A stretch of DNA of 8,253 bases from the IMG/VR virus record IMGVR_UViG_3300011952_000012; one strand, given 5' to 3'. The notes beneath the pieces were generated by a model. It had not been told where the DNA came from. It saw only the letters and a program-made list of their open reading frames with translations, and ran no database searches. This document shows positions 1,043 to 8,253 of this stretch, piece by piece. The stretch's first letter is position 1; each line of letters opens with the position of its first letter. The translations under genes were made by a program, and so were the position numbers. This DNA comes from a virus. Its lineage: Duplodnaviria > Heunggongvirae > Uroviricota > Caudoviricetes.

Positions 1043-1155
1043 AATCGAACTCCCACGGGACGGCGGCGTCCCGTACTCAGACCGAGCTGTGATTTCAGCT
1101 CGATAATGTACGTTCGGAGCTGTTCAATACTCGCCTGGGAGTACTGATAGCTCCG
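1039..1155 (-). CDS. Head-tail joining protein gpW-like (C-terminal 38 codons; 5' part hidden in the N-run)
   Basis: Third minus-strand frame between the N-run and the portal start translates to ...QASIEQLRTYIIELKSQLGLSTGRRRPVGVRL-stop, resembling the lambda gpW C-terminus (…[28 protein letters not shown]). Stop TGA at 1041-1039 overlaps the portal ATG. Position between terminase large subunit and portal matches lambda order A-W-B. Confidence 0.7.
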   Translation of the reverse strand, partial: RSYQYSQASIEQLRTYIIELKSQLGLSTGRRRPVGVRL

Positions 1156-1310
1156 NNNNNNNNNNNNNNNNNNNNNNNNNNNNNNNNNNNNNNNNNNNNN
1201 NNNNNNNNNNNNNNNNNNNNNNNNNNNNNNNNNNNNNNNNNNNNNNNNNNNNNNNNNNNNNNNNNNNNNNNNNNNNNNNNNNNNNNNNNNNNNNNNNNNN
1301 NNNNNNNNNN
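1156..1310. other. Run of 155 N (unresolved or masked sequence); hides the terminase large subunit C-terminus and the gpW N-terminus
   Basis: Directly visible as n characters in the sequence. Confidence 0.98.
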
Positions 1311-3207
1311 GAGCGTCTCGAGATTGAGCTGGAAACGAATTTTACTGATACGCAGCGCTGCCAGCCCGTATACCCAGCAGTCGAGCGCCTCATTTCGCCG
1401 CCCCTGGTTGTCCCAGCGGTAAACGACGCGACCGTTAATGAGTTTCGGGATCAGAACTTCAGAGACGAGCTGTTTTGCCTCTGTTGTGCCGAATATTTCG
1501 TCGTCGTTTGGAAAATGAATTGCACCCGGTGTCGCTGATTTTGGGTCTGGTTCCAGTGGCAGGGGCATCGCGAGCAAATCTTTTGCTGTGTCAGTACCGA
1601 TTAACGACAAATAAACTTTATTCGCGTTACGTGTACGCGGCATATTTACGACTGGCTGGCCGTATGAGCTTGCGCCTTTAATTGGAATGACCCACAGCGG
1701 ACCGAGTTTCAGCGAGCGGTTATAAACAACCTGCGCATCTATACCGCCGGTATCCCACGCCCAGCGGCTGACGCCGATTGTGGTCCCGTCGCTGCGCCGG
1801 TATTGTTTGCGAATCACTCCGTCGACACGCTGCAGCGTGTCCTCTTCGTCGTAGCGACCGAGGACGATTGTTTTATCAATCAGCCAGCACTCTTCCTCAG
1901 CTCCCCAGCCCCACACGTAACACTCGTAGCGCCCGGACGTCTGAGAGTCGATGCCGCCGGTTATATAAACAACACCGTCAGGAACCTGGCTGGCGTATTT
2001 TTCCCGGCGATTAACCAGAATATCGTGCTCCAGCTGCTCGCTGGCCACGTCGCTCCAAAGCTCGCCGAGCGTCGTGTTATGAAACGTTTTTTCTTTGAGT
2101 GGGTCGCCCTTCGCTTTCAGCCACTCGCTGACAATCTCGCCCCATCCATCAAGGTTTAGTGAATACAGGGCGTTTATCACGATCGCCGCGTGTTTCGGCG
2201 CGCGAACGACGCCACTGTCATGATCAAAAAAATGGATTNNNNNNNNNNTCTCGGGTCCAGGTGCAGTCCTCGGCTATCCAGCGCCCCCCGAGCTCCATTT
2301 TTTCGAGATCGCGATAGTAAAAATGCTCCGGGCAGTGGCAGCACTGGTAATACGCGGACGACGATTTCGACTCGTTGGTCTGCAGGCTGTCATCCCACTT
2401 GAGACCGTATTCGATACCGTCGAAACCAAATACCAGGACCTGCTCCTCGCCACAATGCGGACACTTCAGGTAAAAACGAAACGTCAGATCAGCCGCGTCT
2501 TCCAACATTTCTATATGGCTTTTGCCAGTAACGGTCGGCGTCGAACCAAAAATCGCTTTCGGGTATGCTGCGCCCTTAATTCGAACGAGCGCCAGCTCAA
2601 TTGGCGAGCCTTCGCCTTTACCTTTTTTAGCGACCTCCAGCGGCCAGCCGTCGACCTCGTCACCTTCGACAACCTGTTTCGTCAGTCGACGAAAATTCCC
2701 CGGCGTACTCGCGCCGCGAAAATCAATAATTGCGCCGCTCATCTCTTTGCGCTGGAGATTGTTACGCTCGTTGCTTTTATCCCAGTCTGGGAAAATTTTC
2801 TGAATCACCGGCATTTCGGCGATAGCGGGGTCAACCTCGTCGGCGACAAATCCATCCGATTCGTCATCGATAGGCTGATAGACCACGGCACTACGTTTTT
2901 TGTGCTCAGCGAAATAGAGCAGCGCCGCGACGAGTATTTTTGTATAACCGAGACGAGCTGATTTGCGAACAGACACGATTTTTATCGCGTCGTTAGTCAT
3001 CATATTTAACATCACTACCTGGACCGGCTGAGTCGTCCAGTGGCCAGCAATATGGCTTGAGCCTTCGGGAAGATAAAAATGTTTATCAGCCCACTCAACC
3101 CCCGTCATCGGTATCGTCACGCGCAAGGGATTCAACCCTGTCGAGATCGCGTTCGATATCGCTGACATCGTAATCGCTGAAGTCGATTCGTATGTCTGCC
3201 AGTTCAT
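1311..3207 (-). CDS. Terminase large subunit, lambda gpA family (interrupted by a 10-N run at 2239-2248; C-terminus in the 155-N run)
   Basis: ORF-track pieces 2224..3207 and 1095..2180 are two halves of one protein. N-terminal half has VEWADKHFYLPEG, VSVRKSARLGYTKILVAALLYFAEHKKRS, KCPHCGEEQ; C-terminal half has KEKTFHNTTLGELW, YITGGIDSQ, CWLIDKTIVLGRYDEEDTL, WDTGGIDAQVVYNRS, VIPIKGASSYGQPV, YLSLIGTDTAKD, RRNEALDCWVYGLAALRIS, all colinear with lambda gpA as I recall it. Start may be 3207 (ORF track) or the internal ATG at 3168 (MSAISN..., closer to lambda MNISNS...). Confidence 0.92.
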
Positions 3208-3661
3208 TCAGGGCTATTGCCAGCTCCTCTCGTAATACACTGCTCGCCTCCTGCGGCATTTCCGGCCACACCTTTTTTAACCGTGGTGGCCACGATTCGA
3301 CACGGGTACGTAATTCAACTGCGACGCGAGATACAGCTACGCTGATTAATTCAATTGGCGCGTAGCGTTTAGCAAGAATGCGGCGTTTCACGCGAGCCAT
3401 CAGGATTCGCTCCTGCCGTTCCTCATTTTTCAACCACTGCTCGCGATTTTTTTCGGGAGAATTGTCCCCCGCTTCCGGTTCGTCATTACTAGTTGTGTCG
3501 CGTCTATTGCTCCGGAGATAACGAATATAAAAATGGCGCCATGCGTCAAGTTCCCAATCGCCACGTCCTTGGGGGACTGGGGCTCCCGGAAGTTTTGCAA
3601 GATCGCGCAGACGACGATCAGATAGCAGTAAATGTGCTGCGACCTCAGCCTGACTTGCCAT
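3095..3661 (-). CDS. Terminase small subunit (Nu1-like DNA-packaging protein)
   Basis: 188-aa ORF immediately upstream of and overlapping the terminase large subunit. RBS GAGGA about 6 nt before the ATG at 3661. N-terminus (LSDRRLRDLAKLPGAPVPQGRGDWELDAWRHFYIRY) loosely resembles the lambda Nu1 N-terminal region (ASIRTIQNWQEQGMPVLRGGGKGNEVLYDSAAVIKWY); acidic C-terminus. Called mainly on synteny. Confidence 0.65.
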   Translation of the reverse strand: MASQAEVAAHLLLSDRRLRDLAKLPGAPVPQGRGDWELDAWRHFYIRYLRSNRRDTTSNDEPEAGDNSPEKNREQWLKNEERQERILMARVKRRILAKRYAPIELISVAVSRVAVELRTRVESWPPRLKKVWPEMPQEASSVLREELAIALNELADIRIDFSDYDVSDIERDLDRVESLARDDTDDGG

Positions 3662-3724
3662 TAAAAATCCTCACCGGAACCGGAAATACCCAAAATGAAA
3701 AAATACTAAAAACGAGTGAGTTTT

Positions 3725-3775
3725 TGCGCGTCTACCGACCCTCGGTGTTTTGAATTTCGGAAAGGACCCGCGACC
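3725..3775. other. Putative cos region (cosQ-like and cosN-like elements)
   Basis: About 60-100 bp upstream of the Nu1-like start. Minus strand reads CGGGTCCTTTCCG (plus 3758-3770), matching the lambda right-end motif ACGGGTCCTTTCCGG as I recall it, followed about 11 nt later by the hyphenated palindrome ACCGA-GGG-TCGGT (plus 3734-3746), a candidate nicking site. Confidence 0.45.
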
Positions 3776-4032
3776 AGGGGGGCTATATCCCTTTCAGGAC
3801 AGGAATCGGGGGCTCGCATCAGGTTCATCAAACTCGACTGTAGCCTCGCGGCGTACTTGTTTGCATACATCAGCTTTGTGTATCTCATTATCAGCGTAAG
3901 CTTTCACTTTGGCAGCGAGCCATCCTTTTGCGCTGTATCGATAGACTACCGAACAAAGTTTCCCCTATGTGTATATATCTTGAAATTATTGATATTCTTA
4001 CAGAAAAGCAACAACCATGAGCACACAAAAAA

Positions 4033-4262
4033 ATGAACAAAGAAAAAATCGAAGCCTTAATGAGCGTAATATTAAAAGAAGCTGACCCCAAAAAATTTCC
4101 TGAGAAATTATCAGAGGACGCCATCGTATCTTTTTATCGTGCGAACTCCTCTTACCTACATTGTTCAACTTTAAGAGAATGGTTAAGCGGCGAAGCAGAG
4201 CCTTCAGATGAGATACTTGAGGAGATTATGGTTCAGAACAACTGGCGCGCAACTAAATGGTC
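4033..4262 (+). CDS. Hypothetical protein, low-GC moron-like ORF (3' end lost in or near the 10-N run)
   Basis: Only plus-strand ORF with a plausible hydrophilic translation (MNKEKIEALMSVILKEADPKKFPEKLSEDAIVSFYRANSSYLHCSTLREWLSGEAEPSDEILEEIMVQNNWRATKW). Markedly AT-rich compared with flanking phage genes, preceded by an AT-rich region 3890-4030. No clear SD. The ORF-track continuation after the gap is antisense to the lipoprotein signal peptide and is probably not real. Confidence 0.35.
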
Positions 4263-4272
4263 NNNNNNNNNN
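4263..4272. other. Run of 10 N (placeholder gap) between convergent genes
   Basis: Directly visible. Confidence 0.98.
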
Positions 4273-4403
4273 GTAATCTTCGTACCCGGCGCGATCGTCA
4301 CGTGTTTAATGCTGCTGCCGTCAGCGCGAGTCGCTTCGGTGTATGTCGAATGTGTGCAGCCTGCCATCGTGAAGAACGCGACAGCTAAGAGAAGTTTTTT
4401 CAC
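4273..4403 (-). CDS. Putative lipoprotein (N-terminal part; possible spanin or Bor-like outer-membrane lipoprotein), 3' end in or beyond the N-run
   Basis: GTG at 4403-4401 lies 7 nt after the endolysin stop (TAG 4413-4411). Translation V/MKKLLLAVAFFTMAGCTHSTYTEATRADGSSIKHVTIAPGTKIT... has a canonical lipoprotein signal peptide (KK n-region, hydrophobic core, lipobox-like MAG-C). All three minus frames hit stops within about 25 codons below the gap, so the protein is short unless the gap hides more. Confidence 0.55.
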
Positions 4404-4410
4404 GTTTTAC

Positions 4411-4890
4411 CTACGCTTCTGAGATAGATTTCTCAGCATTCACCAATGGAAGTGATTGTGGAACATCCGTTTGACCTGCTGGCCAGCGATAGCCTGTTAC
4501 GCGGGAACGAGGAAAAGCTTTGATATTTACTTCATCTGCCTGGTTGCCCCCCAAAATCATTAAATCCCCGGCGGCATTTTTCCCGACAACAAAACCAACG
4601 TGGCCACCGCCAGACCGAGACAGAATAGCAATGCATCCATAGGCAGGTTCCTTCAGTTCATTACCCCAATCGAGATAAGAATTCGCAGACTCAAAACGCG
4701 TTGAGCGAATACCAACACGTTCCAGCATTGCTCCGGTGAAGGCGGCGCACCATGGTGTTTCGTCATCCTTAATACCGCCGCGTTTGATATCTTTCCAGTA
4801 CTGCACAATTTCTGCAGCATGTTGCTTCCCTTTCATTTCCCGGATGCCGAGATTTTTTCGTGCCTCAATTAGCCATTTAGGATCGGTCAT
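4411..4890 (-). CDS. Putative endolysin: Cys-His peptidase (CHAP / NlpC-P60-like, TIGR02594-like) peptidoglycan hydrolase
   Basis: 159-aa ORF with RBS GGAGA about 6 nt upstream. Candidate catalytic Cys in DETPWCAAFTG and His in GGGHVGFVVG. Sits directly after two small membrane proteins and before a lipoprotein. Start overlaps the upstream stop (TAATG). Confidence 0.6.
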   Translation of the reverse strand: MTDPKWLIEARKNLGIREMKGKQHAAEIVQYWKDIKRGGIKDDETPWCAAFTGAMLERVGIRSTRFESANSYLDWGNELKEPAYGCIAILSRSGGGHVGFVVGKNAAGDLMILGGNQADEVNIKAFPRSRVTGYRWPAGQTDVPQSLPLVNAEKSISEA

Positions 4891-5162
4891 TACCTGTCTC
4901 CTGTTATTTTTGAAATATTTCCTCGTGCCCGCCAGACAGCAATACAGATGGTGAGGTTGAGAAAGAACTCTGCGGGATCAACCTGCGTATATTTCCCGTA
5001 AAAAATTCGTAGGGCTATCCACGCAGCAGACAGAATCGCCAGGTAAGCAGTTAGTGAGATAAAAAAACGATAGCGGCCTGTTTTTTGAAAAAACATCAAC
5101 CGCAGTGCCAGCATCAGACAGATAATTGCATTGGCATTGATGAGGACAGAGTGCAGGGTCAT
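4890..5162 (-). CDS. Small integral membrane protein (holin or antiholin-like), second gene of the lysis cassette
   Basis: 90-aa ORF with about three hydrophobic segments (AIICLMLALRLMFF, FFISLTAYLAILSAAWIALRIF, FFLNLTICIAVW). RBS AAGGGGA about 8 nt upstream. Stop and start overlaps with both neighbours (TAATG) suggest translational coupling. Confidence 0.6.
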   Translation of the reverse strand: MTLHSVLINANAIICLMLALRLMFFQKTGRYRFFISLTAYLAILSAAWIALRIFYGKYTQVDPAEFFLNLTICIAVWRARGNISKITGDR

Positions 5163-5545
5163 TATTTCATCCCCTTATCTGATTTCCATAAACGAGCTTG
5201 TGACATGATCCGCAACAGTGATGTAACGCTGATTACTGATGCAACCAGTGCACCAATGGCGGGAGAGACTTTTACTGTTACGGGAGGGTTCAGGTGACTC
5301 AGCACCGCATTCAGAATACCGGTAATGATGGCTGATGCTGTCTCAGCGCAATACACACCGCCAACAAACGAAATGAGTGCGAAAATAACCTGCTTCCAGA
5401 ATCGATGCTGCCCGGATGACAACACATAGAGAGCTGCGCCTGCCAGCGCACAGATCATCACTGCAGGTGTTGCCTCAGGAAATAACGCAGCAAACGTCAC
5501 CCCCGCCGAGCCAGCAGCAACGCCAGCGGTTAGAGGTTCAGACAT
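5162..5545 (-). CDS. Putative holin (multi-TM membrane protein), first gene of the late/lysis operon
   Basis: ORF track gives 5162..5671, but the ATG at 5545 (MSEPLTAGVAAGSAGVTFAALF...) has an RBS AGGAAA 6 nt upstream and lies downstream of the terminator hairpin; the longer start would run through that hairpin. 127 aa with 3-4 hydrophobic segments and a charged C-terminus (RLWKSDKGMK). Confidence 0.6.
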   Translation of the reverse strand: MSEPLTAGVAAGSAGVTFAALFPEATPAVMICALAGAALYVLSSGQHRFWKQVIFALISFVGGVYCAETASAIITGILNAVLSHLNPPVTVKVSPAIGALVASVISVTSLLRIMSQARLWKSDKGMK

Positions 5546-5561
5546 GATTTTTCCTGATTCA

Positions 5562-5590
5562 GAAACGACAAAACCCCGCCGTGGCGAGGT
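5562..5590 (-). terminator. Rho-independent terminator-like hairpin between the Q-like gene and the holin (tR'-like)
   Basis: Minus strand reads CCUCGC-CACG-GCGGGG (6-bp GC-rich stem, one G-U pair, 4-nt loop) followed by UUUUGUCGUUUCU. In lambda the Q-dependent terminator tR' lies in the equivalent position. Confidence 0.4.
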
Positions 5591-5625
5591 TCTTAGAAAT
5601 TTGGCAACATACCAAATTAGCGTTA

Positions 5626-5654
5626 AATATGGCCTATTTTGTTCGGTTTTGCAA
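5626..5654 (-). promoter_or_regulatory. Candidate late promoter (pR'-like) immediately after the Q-like stop
   Basis: Minus strand TTGCAA (5654-5649), 17-bp spacer, CATATT (5631-5626). Weak match to the sigma70 consensus; proposed from position only. Confidence 0.25.
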
Positions 5655-5657
5655 GCA

Positions 5658-6092
5658 TTATACGCAAACATCGTCTAAATGGTTCTGATAATGATGCAAA
5701 GTTGCAAAAAGTGCCACTTCATCAAGTGCTCTCACCGCCTCTTTCATTCCTACCCAGTGCGGGGAGTATGTTTCGCACCAGGTGGAACGAGAAACAGACA
5801 ACATTCCAGCTAGCGCAGATCCGGCCATCTCCTTAAAATCCTCGCGTTTATTTGCTGCTGCGACCGCCTGCACGGACAACCACACCAACGAAAGCAGGCG
5901 CTTGACTACTTTTCTCTGAGTTGACGCAGAGATGTTTCCTTTATAGCGACTCCAGACAGCCTCACAAATAGCTGTTTGGTGTTTGAACGCCAGGTTACCA
6001 CCGTAGCAATAGCGCAACCACGCCTGCTGGCTAACGTCGAGCGCGTTCACGGCACGGCGCCACGATGAATCAGCGAATTCAAAATCATTCAT
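5658..6092 (-). CDS. Putative late-gene antiterminator (Q-like), 144 aa from the ATG at 6092; may continue upstream across the N-run
   Basis: Open frame with a credible translation (MNDFEFADSSWRRAVNALDVSQQAWLRYCYGGNLAFKHQTAICEAVWSRYKGN...). It is the last gene before the promoter/terminator region and the holin, which is the Q position in lambdoid phages. I do not recognise the sequence as a specific Q family, so the function is inferred from synteny. Confidence 0.45.
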   Translation of the reverse strand: MNDFEFADSSWRRAVNALDVSQQAWLRYCYGGNLAFKHQTAICEAVWSRYKGNISASTQRKVVKRLLSLVWLSVQAVAAANKREDFKEMAGSALAGMLSVSRSTWCETYSPHWVGMKEAVRALDEVALFATLHHYQNHLDDVCV

Positions 6093-6126
6093 CGGCGGCG
6101 CGGGGCGACGTCTGCTGAAACTTTCC

Positions 6127-6136
6127 NNNNNNNNNN
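6127..6136. other. Run of 10 N (placeholder gap) inside the Q-like region
   Basis: Directly visible. Confidence 0.98.
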
Positions 6137-6333
6137 TAAACTGGCGGAACCAGAGCATCAACGGTCCGGTCCTCCAGTTGCACACGATGAATATGTTTGC
6201 GTGGGTATGCGTTTTTATCTGCTGGCGGGTGCTCACACAATGCTTCCAGTTGCCCCTTAGAACCACCAGACAAATCCCGTAATGCAGCACGCAGTTTTAT
6301 GCGGGTATATTCCAATAAATACTCGTTACTCAT
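6137..6333 (-). CDS. Small ORF upstream of the Q-like gene (65 aa visible before the N-run); either a separate small gene or the N-terminal part of the Q-like protein
   Basis: ATG at 6333-6331 overlaps the stop of the YbcO-like gene (TGATG). Translation MSNEYLLEYTRIKLRAALRDLSGGSKGQLEALCEHPPADKNAYPRKHIHRVQLEDRTVDALVPPV then enters the gap. After the gap this frame stops at 6087-6085, 8 nt inside the ATG-initiated downstream frame, but gap length is unknown so frame continuity cannot be judged. Confidence 0.4.
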
Positions 6334-6613
6334 CAGATAAACTCCTCATCGCGCCAGATAGCCAGTGTTCTGAAAACTCCTTCAGCGTGCATCAACAACA
6401 ATGAGTCGTGCTCGTAATCCGTTTTTGTACGCCCGTCGATGGCATCGTGACACGCACTGCAGGCGATAGCGCCCTGCATATCGTGAGGTTTGATGGCTGT
6501 GCCGCACGTTCCGGCGAGGCGGTAGTGAGCCAGTACACTGGTTTCCGGATTGTGATTACGCACACAGGACAAGCGCGACCGCATGCAGCTTTTCTCAGGT
6601 CGATTTTTTTCAT
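6333..6613 (-). CDS. YbcO-like protein (DUF1364 family), with an apparent frame break near the 5' end (possible pseudogene or sequence error)
   Basis: C-terminal 80 residues (...NPETSVLAHYRLAGTCGTAIKPHDMQGAIACSACHDAIDGRTKTDYEHDSLLLMHAEGVFRTLAIWRDEEFI) match E. coli DLP12 YbcO as I recall it (NPETSVLAHIRLTGLCGTGTKP...IACSACHDEID...). The YbcO-like N-terminus MKKIDLRKAACGRACPV is in a different frame, starting at the ATG 6613-6611 that overlaps the upstream stop (ATGA). Confidence 0.6.
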
Positions 6614-7206
6614 GATGTGTAATCCAGCAGCTGCGCGGCAGCATTTTCAGCGGCCTCCTGAGAGGCAAACGTGCGGAACAAAATATAATTCCACAGCACA
6701 TCTAAAACGGCTGAATACAGTTGACCGAACTCAAGATCGTCCATCGCAGCAAACGAGATTGAACGAGGTACGCGCATCAAACTGCCATCCGGCATCTGAT
6801 GAACGTCATAAAACCCAGCTTCCATAATCGCCCAGGCGCGAAACGCCTCGAACGACTTCACCGCACTGATATTCCCCGCGCGCTTTTCCGACTCATCGAG
6901 AAGATACTGATCAGCCAGCTCTGCCATGACATCACCGTGTCCACCGTAATACGCCAGTAACTTAACGTAGCCATGGACCAGTTCGCGCTCCGCAGGAGAA
7001 ATAGCCCCTCCGGACGGATGCCAGTAATCAAAGCCCAGGTTTAGAAGTGAGAAAAATTTACGATGAAACGCGGGATTACGCGCCTGTTTGAAATCTGCAT
7101 ACACAACAGCATCTGGTTTGACTCGTTCAGTCAACCAGCGTTGCGTGTCTGGTGTCGCGGGTATTAGCGAACCGCCGGATACCCTGATAAATGAATGCTG
7201 CGCCAT
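6610..7206 (-). CDS. Conserved phage protein of unknown function (nin-region gene, possibly DUF1367-like)
   Basis: 198-aa ORF with RBS TGGAG about 8 nt before the ATG at 7206 and a globular-looking translation. Stop overlaps the YbcO-like start. Family assignment is a guess from neighbourhood. Confidence 0.7.
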   Translation of the reverse strand: MAQHSFIRVSGGSLIPATPDTQRWLTERVKPDAVVYADFKQARNPAFHRKFFSLLNLGFDYWHPSGGAISPAERELVHGYVKLLAYYGGHGDVMAELADQYLLDESEKRAGNISAVKSFEAFRAWAIMEAGFYDVHQMPDGSLMRVPRSISFAAMDDLEFGQLYSAVLDVLWNYILFRTFASQEAAENAAAQLLDYTS

Positions 7207-7283
7207 GTTTAACTCCAGGTGGCGCGGCAGTGCTCAGAAAATGGTGCCGGGTGTTCAGACCAGCACCAGTATTATACCGCGTA

Positions 7284-7463
7284 TTACGCGTCAGGGGGTG
7301 TAATAGTATATCCAGCTGTTTCTGCCAACTCGAGAAACGCCAGCAGGCTGGCAATCCGCTCGTCGTCGCTGAGGACGCGTACAATCACTACGCGCCCCTC
7401 TTCTCGTTTGATTACAGCCCGGCACGTATCCGGTAATTTGCTGATCGCCTCGTGTGTGTTCAT
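7284..7463 (-). CDS. Small hypothetical protein (59 aa) under a LexA-box promoter; candidate SOS-induced regulator such as an antirepressor
   Basis: ATG at 7463 preceded by SD AGGGGGA about 5 nt upstream (the ORF-track start at 7484 lacks an SD). Translation MNTHEAISKLPDTCRAVIKREEGRVVIVRVLSDDERIASLLAFLELAETAGYTITPPDA. The promoter and LexA box lie 20-55 bp upstream. Confidence 0.55.
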   Translation of the reverse strand: MNTHEAISKLPDTCRAVIKREEGRVVIVRVLSDDERIASLLAFLELAETAGYTITPPDA

Positions 7464-7481
7464 ATTTCCCCCTGACAGAAA

Positions 7482-7501
7482 CACTGTATATATATACAGT
7501 A
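7482..7501. promoter_or_regulatory. LexA operator (SOS box), near-perfect consensus
   Basis: CACTGTATATATATACAGTA matches the E. coli LexA consensus TACTGTATATATATACAGTA at 19 of 20 positions (CTGT-N8-ACAG with an alternating AT spacer). Lies in the intergenic region just upstream of the 59-aa gene. Confidence 0.8.
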
Positions 7502-7519
7502 TTTTTTATCGTATGTCAT
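7491..7519 (-). promoter_or_regulatory. Sigma70-like promoter for the 59-aa gene, -10 embedded in the LexA box
   Basis: Minus strand ATGACA (7519-7514), 17-bp spacer, TATATA (7496-7491). The -10 lies inside the SOS box, the usual arrangement for LexA-repressed promoters. Predicted start about 20 nt upstream of the ATG. Confidence 0.45.
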
Positions 7520-7612
7520 AACATCAAATGCAATGGGGGAATAATGAGCAATTATATTCACCGCGTGAATTTGATTAAACGGTTTATTCCCGGAAAAAAC
7601 GGTTTATGGTTA

Positions 7613-8253
7613 TTATTTTTCATTTCCATAAACATGGGTTAACCATTTTCTAATAGTTGACTCCGCCGGAACGTCAGCATATTTTTTTACGAGAATTTCG
7701 TTAATACGTGCCACCGCCGCACTAACCCGTGCGTGGGGATTATTTGTGAAAAAAACCTCTGCAATCTGTAATGCCTCGTCTTTTAGCCTGTGCTGTGGCC
7801 TCCCTCCGCCCTTTGTTCCCAGATAACGCGCCAGTTGTTTGAACCGGTACGCCACGATTAGTGGCCGCATCATCATATTGAAAAAATCACGTGCATCGTC
7901 GTCCTCTCCTCGCGCTATCAACAGCGCAAAAAACAGGTACGGTATTGTATATACGTCAGGGGAAATCATTACGCGCCTGCACACAGTCGGCGCCAGTGCG
8001 ATCAGTGTGTCTGCCAGCGCGTCGCTCTCTCCTCCACGTTTGTAATACCGGTAGAGTGGTCCTAAGTCGAGTTCACTGGTATTGAATCCAGTCACAGCCT
8101 CACGAACCTCGTCTGCCAGCGCGTTGTAAATCGCCCCTGTACGTTTTGTGTAGAGTCTCCGGGTTGCCCCCCGGTTATCCAGCGCCCGCAGCATGTCAAG
8201 TCGGGTGACAAACGTTTCAGGCCAGTCCTCATAGAATGATCTCATATCCACCT
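7613..8253 (-). CDS. Hypothetical protein (at least 212 aa, probably truncated at the window edge)
   Basis: Long minus-strand ORF with a non-repetitive translation (...RSFYEDWPETFVTRLDMLRALDNRGATRRLYTKRTG...TIRKWLTHVYGNEK). The frame is open to the last base of the window; the ORF-track start is a GTG at 8251 with an ATG at 8245. No family recognised. Confidence 0.65.
   Translation of the reverse strand, partial: VDMRSFYEDWPETFVTRLDMLRALDNRGATRRLYTKRTGAIYNALADEVREAVTGFNTSELDLGPLYRYYKRGGESDALADTLIALAPTVCRRVMISPDVYTIPYLFFALLIARGEDDDARDFFNMMMRPLIVAYRFKQLARYLGTKGGGRPQHRLKDEALQIAEVFFTNNPHARVSAAVARINEILVKKYADVPAESTIRKWLTHVYGNEK

Follow-up and report, generated by a model that had tools for sequence, protein, structure and literature searches.

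The ybcO locus and its neighbors

The DNA considered here, referred to as the window, is the whole of an 8,253-nt stretch from a virus of the Caudoviricetes (IMG/VR record IMGVR_UViG_3300011952_000012). Its genes run in the order DUF1367-ybcO-Q-holin-holin-endolysin-terminase, a late-regulatory (nin-like) region whose order is matched in relatives. The gene of the DUF1367 family (6610..7206, minus strand) is intact in the list of open reading frames; it encodes 198 amino acids that match Pfam PF07105 over their full length (E = 4e-77), and the exact protein is present on 139 contigs. Its stop codon (TGA, 6612-6610) overlaps the start codon of ybcO (ATG, 6613-6611) as ATGA on the minus strand, just as the initial annotation of the sequence had described. 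At its other end, the stop codon of ybcO (TGA, 6335-6333) overlaps the beginning of the gene for antiterminator Q (5658..6333, minus strand). Both halves of Q match Pfam PF06323, and the apparent frame break between them is a run of 10 Ns (6127-6136) standing for six real bases (TGCCCT), as judged from E. coli ETEC1738 and the contig IMGVR_UViG_3300030310_000017. A ribosome-binding site belonging to Q itself (GAGGAG) lies 8 nt before its ATG, and ybcO should accordingly not be needed for the expression of late genes.

Two other features of the region may be mentioned. Position 5670 of the window is T, as it is in the isolate assemblies L092 and L094 considered below, and the minus-strand codon is ATG, as against ACG in ETEC1738 and the IMG/VR contig. 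The result is an in-frame upstream ATG (5669-5671) that lengthens the holin reading frame from 127 to 169 amino acids in the mechanical list of open reading frames, but that is probably not the real start. There is also a perfect, TA-rich palindrome of 18 nt (ACTGTATATATATACAGT) at 7483-7500, intergenic and upstream of a 66-amino-acid reading frame (7484..7284). Set against ETEC1738, the window is longer by one TA and carries a G>T change that completes the palindrome, and the identical form is found in IMG/VR contig 3300030310_000017. The palindrome may be an operator-like site or a site of TA-repeat slippage.

As written, ybcO is divided between two reading frames, in agreement with what had been proposed from the sequence. 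The first 15 codons (MKKIDLRKAACGRAC; 6569..6613, minus strand), ending with the Cys15 codon (TGT, 6571-6569), lie in what I will call frame A. The conserved body (NHNPETSVLAHYRLAGTCGTAIKPHDMQGAIACSACHDAIDGR...; NHNPETSVLAH...ACSACHDAIDGR...; 6333..6568, minus strand), which corresponds roughly to residues 20-97 of the full-length protein, lies in frame B, offset by -1/+2 from frame A and ending at 6333. The switch between frames had been predicted to fall within 6555-6580, and it was found at 6562-6569. From the ATG at 6613, frame A runs on as the reading frame of 73 amino acids previously noticed (6613..6392, beginning MKKIDLRKAACGRACPVCVITIRKP), and the TGA that ends it (6392..6394, minus strand) is 59 nt ahead of the ATG of Q. 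The 73-amino-acid sequence has no Pfam match and is absent, as an exact sequence, from a collection of 15 billion proteins. Frame B is open across the entire junction, as part of a reading frame of 122 amino acids, and contains an internal ATG (6582..6584, minus strand) that yields a product of 83 amino acids without family residues 1-19, including Cys15.

The similarity of the frame B sequence to the YbcO family can be expressed by its match to Pfam PF07102, whose gathering threshold of 29.9 bits is exceeded by the frame B product, the 83-amino-acid product, and an intact relative. The frame B product scores 101.2 bits (E = 3e-29), matching only positions 12-90 of the 92 in the profile, and the 83-amino-acid product scores 101.4 bits (the match begins at profile position 12 or 15 in the window's gene and ends at 90), as compared to 136.9 bits and positions 2-90 for the intact parental allele. 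Frame B keeps the predicted catalytic His34, Cys41, and the pair Cys56-x-x-Cys59, plus Asp64 and Gly65. No single frame contains a complete PF07102 domain: residues 1-15 are in the other frame and codons 16-19 are deleted. The ybcO gene of the window is, as written, a disrupted member of the family (a pseudogene) and not an intact one.

The YbcO/DUF1364 family and the nearest intact alleles

DUF1364/YbcO proteins have been described as treble-clef zinc fingers with a His-Me finger (beta-beta-alpha-metal) core and as predicted nucleases (PMC4999995, PMC5714182), the nuclease activity being a prediction only (PMC4999995). They occur in prophages next to antiterminator Q or recombination genes (PMC5714182), a context that fits the window.

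Within the cluster defined by 90% identity, 12 of the 14 listed members are 97 amino acids long and start with MK(K/N)(I/V)DLRKAA, the other two being a truncated call of 81 amino acids and a partial sequence of 89. The close relatives from E. coli and Salmonella are likewise 97 amino acids in length and begin MKKIDLRKAA. A wider sample took in 80 loci, one per species, ranging from Escherichia to Pseudomonas and Pasteurellaceae; in 76 of them a single frame contains the N-terminal segment, the motif C-x-[VI]-R-I-P-G-x-C, and the body. An alignment of 54 sequences shows Ala10, Cys15, His34, Cys41, Cys56, and Cys59 to be invariant, as are the columns of Asp64 and Gly65, while Arg18, Ile19, Gly21, and Cys23 each recur in no fewer than 90% of the sequences. 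The Pfam profile PF07102 covers the intact protein from residue 5, and the sequence of PDB entry 3G27 (YbcO from prophage DLP12) matches with E = 1e-28 and is aligned from its residue 2.

An AlphaFold (AF2) model of a close homologue (P0002) has a pLDDT of 89.6 and a TM score of 0.93 to 3G27, which is the only match that Foldseek found for it in the PDB. The model places strands at residues 31-33 and 53-55, followed by a helix at 57-63, with His34 at the end of the first strand. Residues 11-30, which include the stretch deleted in the window, form a confidently modeled non-helical segment that bears both Cys15 and Cys23. Judging from the model, I infer that loss of this segment would destroy the zinc site.

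The gene in the window invites comparison with ybcO of the E. coli prophage DLP12 and phage 82 (PF07102, 3G27), since it belongs to the same family, adjoins antiterminator Q, and lies in a nin-like region. Unlike ybcO of DLP12, it has a reading frame broken by the loss of 13 nt between the codons for Cys15 and Cys23, and Cys23 is replaced by Arg. The neighbor of ybcO also differs: DUF1367 in the window as against the ninE/rusA arrangement in DLP12.

The abundance of intact alleles in E. coli was assessed by megablast of positions 6320-6720 of the window against 5,426 complete E. coli genomes. This ybcO allele is carried by 444 of these genomes, and all 30 of the matches listed span an intact 414 nt, as compared to 401 nt in the window. 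In the listed matches, an annotated DUF1364 protein of 97 amino acids lies between DUF1367 and Q, and the alignment contains a single gap of 13 nt in the window.

Closer relatives were reached in two ways. With the 18-nt palindrome used as a marker of lineage, the IMG/VR contig 3300030310_000017 was found, and an exact-protein look-up led to three assemblies of E. coli isolates (GCA_049387865.1, GCA_028652135.1, and GCA_013055325.1). All four carry the parental allele (P0151), with the sequence TGT ACT GTG CGT ATC CCC TGT GTG TGT AAT and an intact protein of 97 amino acids. The window shares with this allele flanking DNA that is identical over 4-6.4 kb, the substitution of Cys for Gly21 (GGT>TGT), and the TA-rich palindrome upstream; it differs in that the parental allele has the 13 nt, a T at the equivalent of 6560, and the full protein. 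When two of the assemblies (GCA_049387865.1 and GCA_013055325.1, or L092 and L094) are compared with positions 1443-7881 of the window, a span of 6.4 kb, the only differences are the 13-nt deletion, the T>C change at 6560, a single nucleotide difference at 1564, and the runs of N.

The substitution at residue 21 deserves a comment of its own. It changes the motif to R-I-P-C-V-C throughout the parental lineage (L088, 2741-3034; L092-L094, 1269-1562), replacing a glycine that 90% or more of family members have. The sequence CCCTGTGTG, which marks this allele, is common to the window and the parental lineage. The variant protein is on 53 contigs drawn from NCBI, JGI, ENA, and Logan, and so it represents a real, circulating allele. 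Because the window shares this marker, its ybcO stretch derives from a real template.

Nature of the lesion

The lesion was defined by alignment of the window to ETEC1738, RM10042, phage 705R4, IMG/VR contig 3300030310_000017, and the isolate assemblies L092-L094. Of the sequence common to all intact relatives, 13 nt (ACTGTGCGTATCC relative to the nearest allele) are missing between 6569 and 6568, at a junction that occupies 6562..6569 on the minus strand; the placement of the gap is ambiguous to the extent that BLAST can also put the deletion at 6563|6562. With the 13 nt in place, the intact sequence reads TGTACTGTGCGTATCCCCTGTG (the intact allele is also represented by TGTACTGTGCGTATCCCCTGTGTGTGTAAT), and the window across the junction reads GCGCTTGTCCTGTGTGCGTAATCAC. 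The codons for Thr16, Val17, Arg18, and Ile19 are lost together with one base of the codon for Pro20, and the frame is therefore shifted. Eight nt from the deletion is the second change, the T>C substitution at 6560 (minus strand), which in the frame of the body converts Cys23 (TGT) to Arg (CGT); apart from it, only one other base differs from L092 and L094 over 6.4 kb. Starting at the ATG and including the Cys15 codon, 45 nt agree exactly with intact alleles, and so the N-terminal similarity to YbcO is not a matter of chance; beyond the lesion, the body too shows no difference from intact alleles. The suspicion of a small deletion or frameshift was therefore correct for the sequence as written, which has a 13-nt deletion and an adjacent substitution when set against intact alleles.

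The lesion was sought elsewhere. An exact scan for 30 nt spanning the junction found it absent from 185,579 species genomes, from IMG/VR, and from 241 million JGI metagenome records. No match spanning the junction was found when a 71-nt junction region was compared by megablast with the 5,426 complete E. coli genomes, only intact alleles aligned with a gap. The 83-amino-acid product is recorded once (JGI/IMG), only on the window's own contig.

Simple mechanisms for the deletion were also considered. Deletion between the CTGTG...CTGTG repeats (13-nt period) predicts TTGTACTGTGTGTGTAATC, and deletion between GTGCGTA and GTGTGTA (15-nt period) predicts TTGTACTGTGCGTAATC, neither of which is the observed TTGTCCTGTGTGCGTAATC; because both models fail in this way, no single clean slippage event fits. 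A search for a template switch or quasi-palindrome, allowing up to 3 mismatches on either strand, found no second copy in the window of the novel 17-mer at the junction. When the intact segment is folded as single-stranded DNA, its small hairpin (CCGG..TGTG/CACA..CCGG) does not reach significance (z = -1.74).

Two other damaged copies of the same ybcO allele were encountered. One, on a Logan contig (SRR10692319; P0032, locus L086), has a deletion of 1 nt (CCCCGGTG to CCCCGTG; GG>G) at about 3075-3095, equivalent to about 6562-6569 of the window and so inside the same 13 nt that the window lacks; the gene was called as a reading frame of 107 amino acids from an off-frame upstream ATG. The other, on a 525-bp contig from ENA (P0045), has an in-frame deletion of 12 amino acids (MQGAIACSACHD) that takes in the Cys56-x-x-Cys59 (CSAC) motif. 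Like the window, these are sporadic inactivating lesions of the same prophage gene; unlike it, they represent independent events of other kinds, the loss of a single nucleotide and the in-frame loss of 12 residues.

The coincidence of two different lesions within the same 13 nt could be due to chance (about 4%) or to a hotspot for mutation or for sequencing error. Three changes are known within the 13 nt: the window's deletion, the 1-nt deletion of the Logan contig, and the substitution at Gly21 found on 53 contigs. One may imagine that CGTATCCCC(G/T)GTG, between the first two Cys codons, is a hotspot where mutation repeatedly inactivates a prophage His-Me nuclease, perhaps because the enzyme is costly to the host. 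This is a weak reading and I consider it unlikely, because only two of the events disrupt the gene and both could be sequencing artefacts at the C4G2 run.

Origin and meaning of the frame break

If the sequence is taken at face value, what would be broken is an ordinary ybcO gene of a lambdoid E. coli prophage, interrupted immediately behind its Cys15 codon by the loss of 13 nt and further altered by the T>C change that puts Arg in place of Cys23. Initiation at the translationally coupled ATG (6613) would give 15 correct residues followed by 58 out of frame, up to the stop at 6392, and the conserved body would be left untranslated. At best, the body would be made as an 83-amino-acid fragment from the ATG at 6584, without Cys15, Arg18, Ile19, and Cys23.

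The initial annotation allowed that the gene may truly start at that internal ATG, the similarity in frame A being coincidental if proteins of the family normally began at the equivalent position. On this view the product would be a functional YbcO of 83 amino acids, and frame A would be irrelevant. The ATG is there, the reading frame that starts from it was called by the gene caller of the source, and the product still scores 101 bits against PF07102 and retains His34, Cys41, Cys56, and Cys59. However, homologues do not begin there: close relatives are 97 amino acids long from the ATG of MKKIDL, 76 of the 80 species-level loci have the body in the frame of the N-terminal segment and first Cys, and both the Pfam profile and 3G27 take in the N-terminus. 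The shorter product would be without two invariant residues (Ala10 and Cys15) and two conserved ones (Arg18 and Ile19), with Arg replacing Cys23, and its ATG is not preceded by a good Shine-Dalgarno sequence (GAGAAAAGCTGC) and lies inside a reading frame translated from the coupled start. The survey of homologues has already largely refuted an internal start, and I regard it as very unlikely. Programmed recoding, in which the ribosome would pass from one frame to the other, say by tRNA-Val slipping +2 on GUGUG (6565-6561) or by a -1 shift on the run of seven As (6610-6604), is less probable still, to the point of being hardly credible. It would be permitted by the openness of frame B over the whole junction, by the two overlapping GUG codons within GTGTG, and by the A7 run that follows the ATG. 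But the junction (TGT CCT GTG TGC GTA) contains no X XXY YYZ heptamer, consistent with the earlier remark that no obvious slippery heptamer was seen, and the only slippery run is the A7 in codons 2-4, where a slip would lose the conserved N-terminus. After a +2 slip, the product would still be missing residues 19-22 (the I-P-C-V block) as well as Cys23, now encoded as Arg. The division into two frames is not seen in any relative: those with identical flanks and the same A7 run have one open reading frame, and the window's allele is a singleton.

Two readings remain. Either a dispensable gene of the prophage has lost its function through a real deletion of very recent date, or the break is an artefact of assembly or sequencing. 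In the latter case, the phage in the sample has an intact gene of 97 amino acids, and both the gap and the T>C change come from two contig ends joined by a short-read scaffolder or from a low-coverage, error-bearing path of reads. The window is a scaffold, with four runs of N in 8.25 kb (1156-1310, 2239-2248, 4263-4272, and 6127-6136). Comparison with near-identical relatives indicates that the run of 155 Ns (1156-1310) stands for 188 nt and that at 4263-4272 for at least 49 nt, while those of 10 Ns at 2239-2248 and 6127-6136 stand in for no more than three (CGG) and six bases, respectively, from which it follows that contigs broke and were re-joined repeatedly in the region; the assembly was clearly a fragile one here. 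The runs are gaps of fixed length, and so the apparent frame breaks in Q (6333..5658) and in the large terminase gene (3207..1095) are not mutations. Scaffolders of the SPAdes type include joiners that work by approximate overlap, with an artificial gap of 10 Ns, and the ends of the ybcO deletion share an imperfect repeat (ACTGTGCGTA / CCTGTGTGTGTA) that such a joiner could mis-merge. It also speaks for an artefact, and against a real deletion, that no second copy of the lesion turned up in any of the collections searched, near-identical relatives all being intact, and that the deletion falls within 8 nt of one of the only two single-nucleotide differences in 6.4 kb. The event is not one of clean microhomology but needs the extra substitution, and a cluster of deletion and substitution would also fit a bad join of contig ends.

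On the other side, there are no Ns at the site of the lesion, the site is not a long homopolymer, and a deletion of 13 nt is atypical of Illumina read error. A simple merge of prefix and suffix from the two repeat copies fails to give the observed sequence without an additional base change. Outside the gaps the contig is essentially free of error when compared to the isolates; since the window is otherwise identical to L092 and L094 over 6.4 kb, base quality outside the scaffolding gaps must be high and the event recent. Moreover, the contig has a second private deletion, of 51 nt (17 codons, in frame), in the portal gene (431|432, minus strand), relative to the sibling IMG/VR contig, GF43, and every E. 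coli match listed. The portal deletion is flanked by a 3-nt direct repeat (AGC) and is clean, with no similar flanks that might be mis-merged, which suggests that the variant represented by the window really carries deletions. A real event is also favored by the lineage marker CCCTGTGTG in the ybcO stretch and by the other damaged copies of the gene. An artefact I judge to be a serious contender, if somewhat short of an even chance. On the evidence of the sequences compared, I lean slightly toward the genuine deletion, which I would put at about an even chance. The comparisons establish the lesion itself, its uniqueness, and the intact gene of all relatives; the loss of ybcO function and an origin in biology rather than in assembly are inferred.

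The frame break was correctly spotted, and it is an ordinary one in a known family of prophage genes, not a novelty. For annotation it carries a caution, in that the call of a "YbcO" of 83 amino acids represents a truncated fragment of a protein of 97. Genes of the nin region are dispensable in phage lambda, as the nin5 deletion attests, and if the deletion in the window is real, it would be a further instance of the decay of such a gene in a lambdoid prophage.
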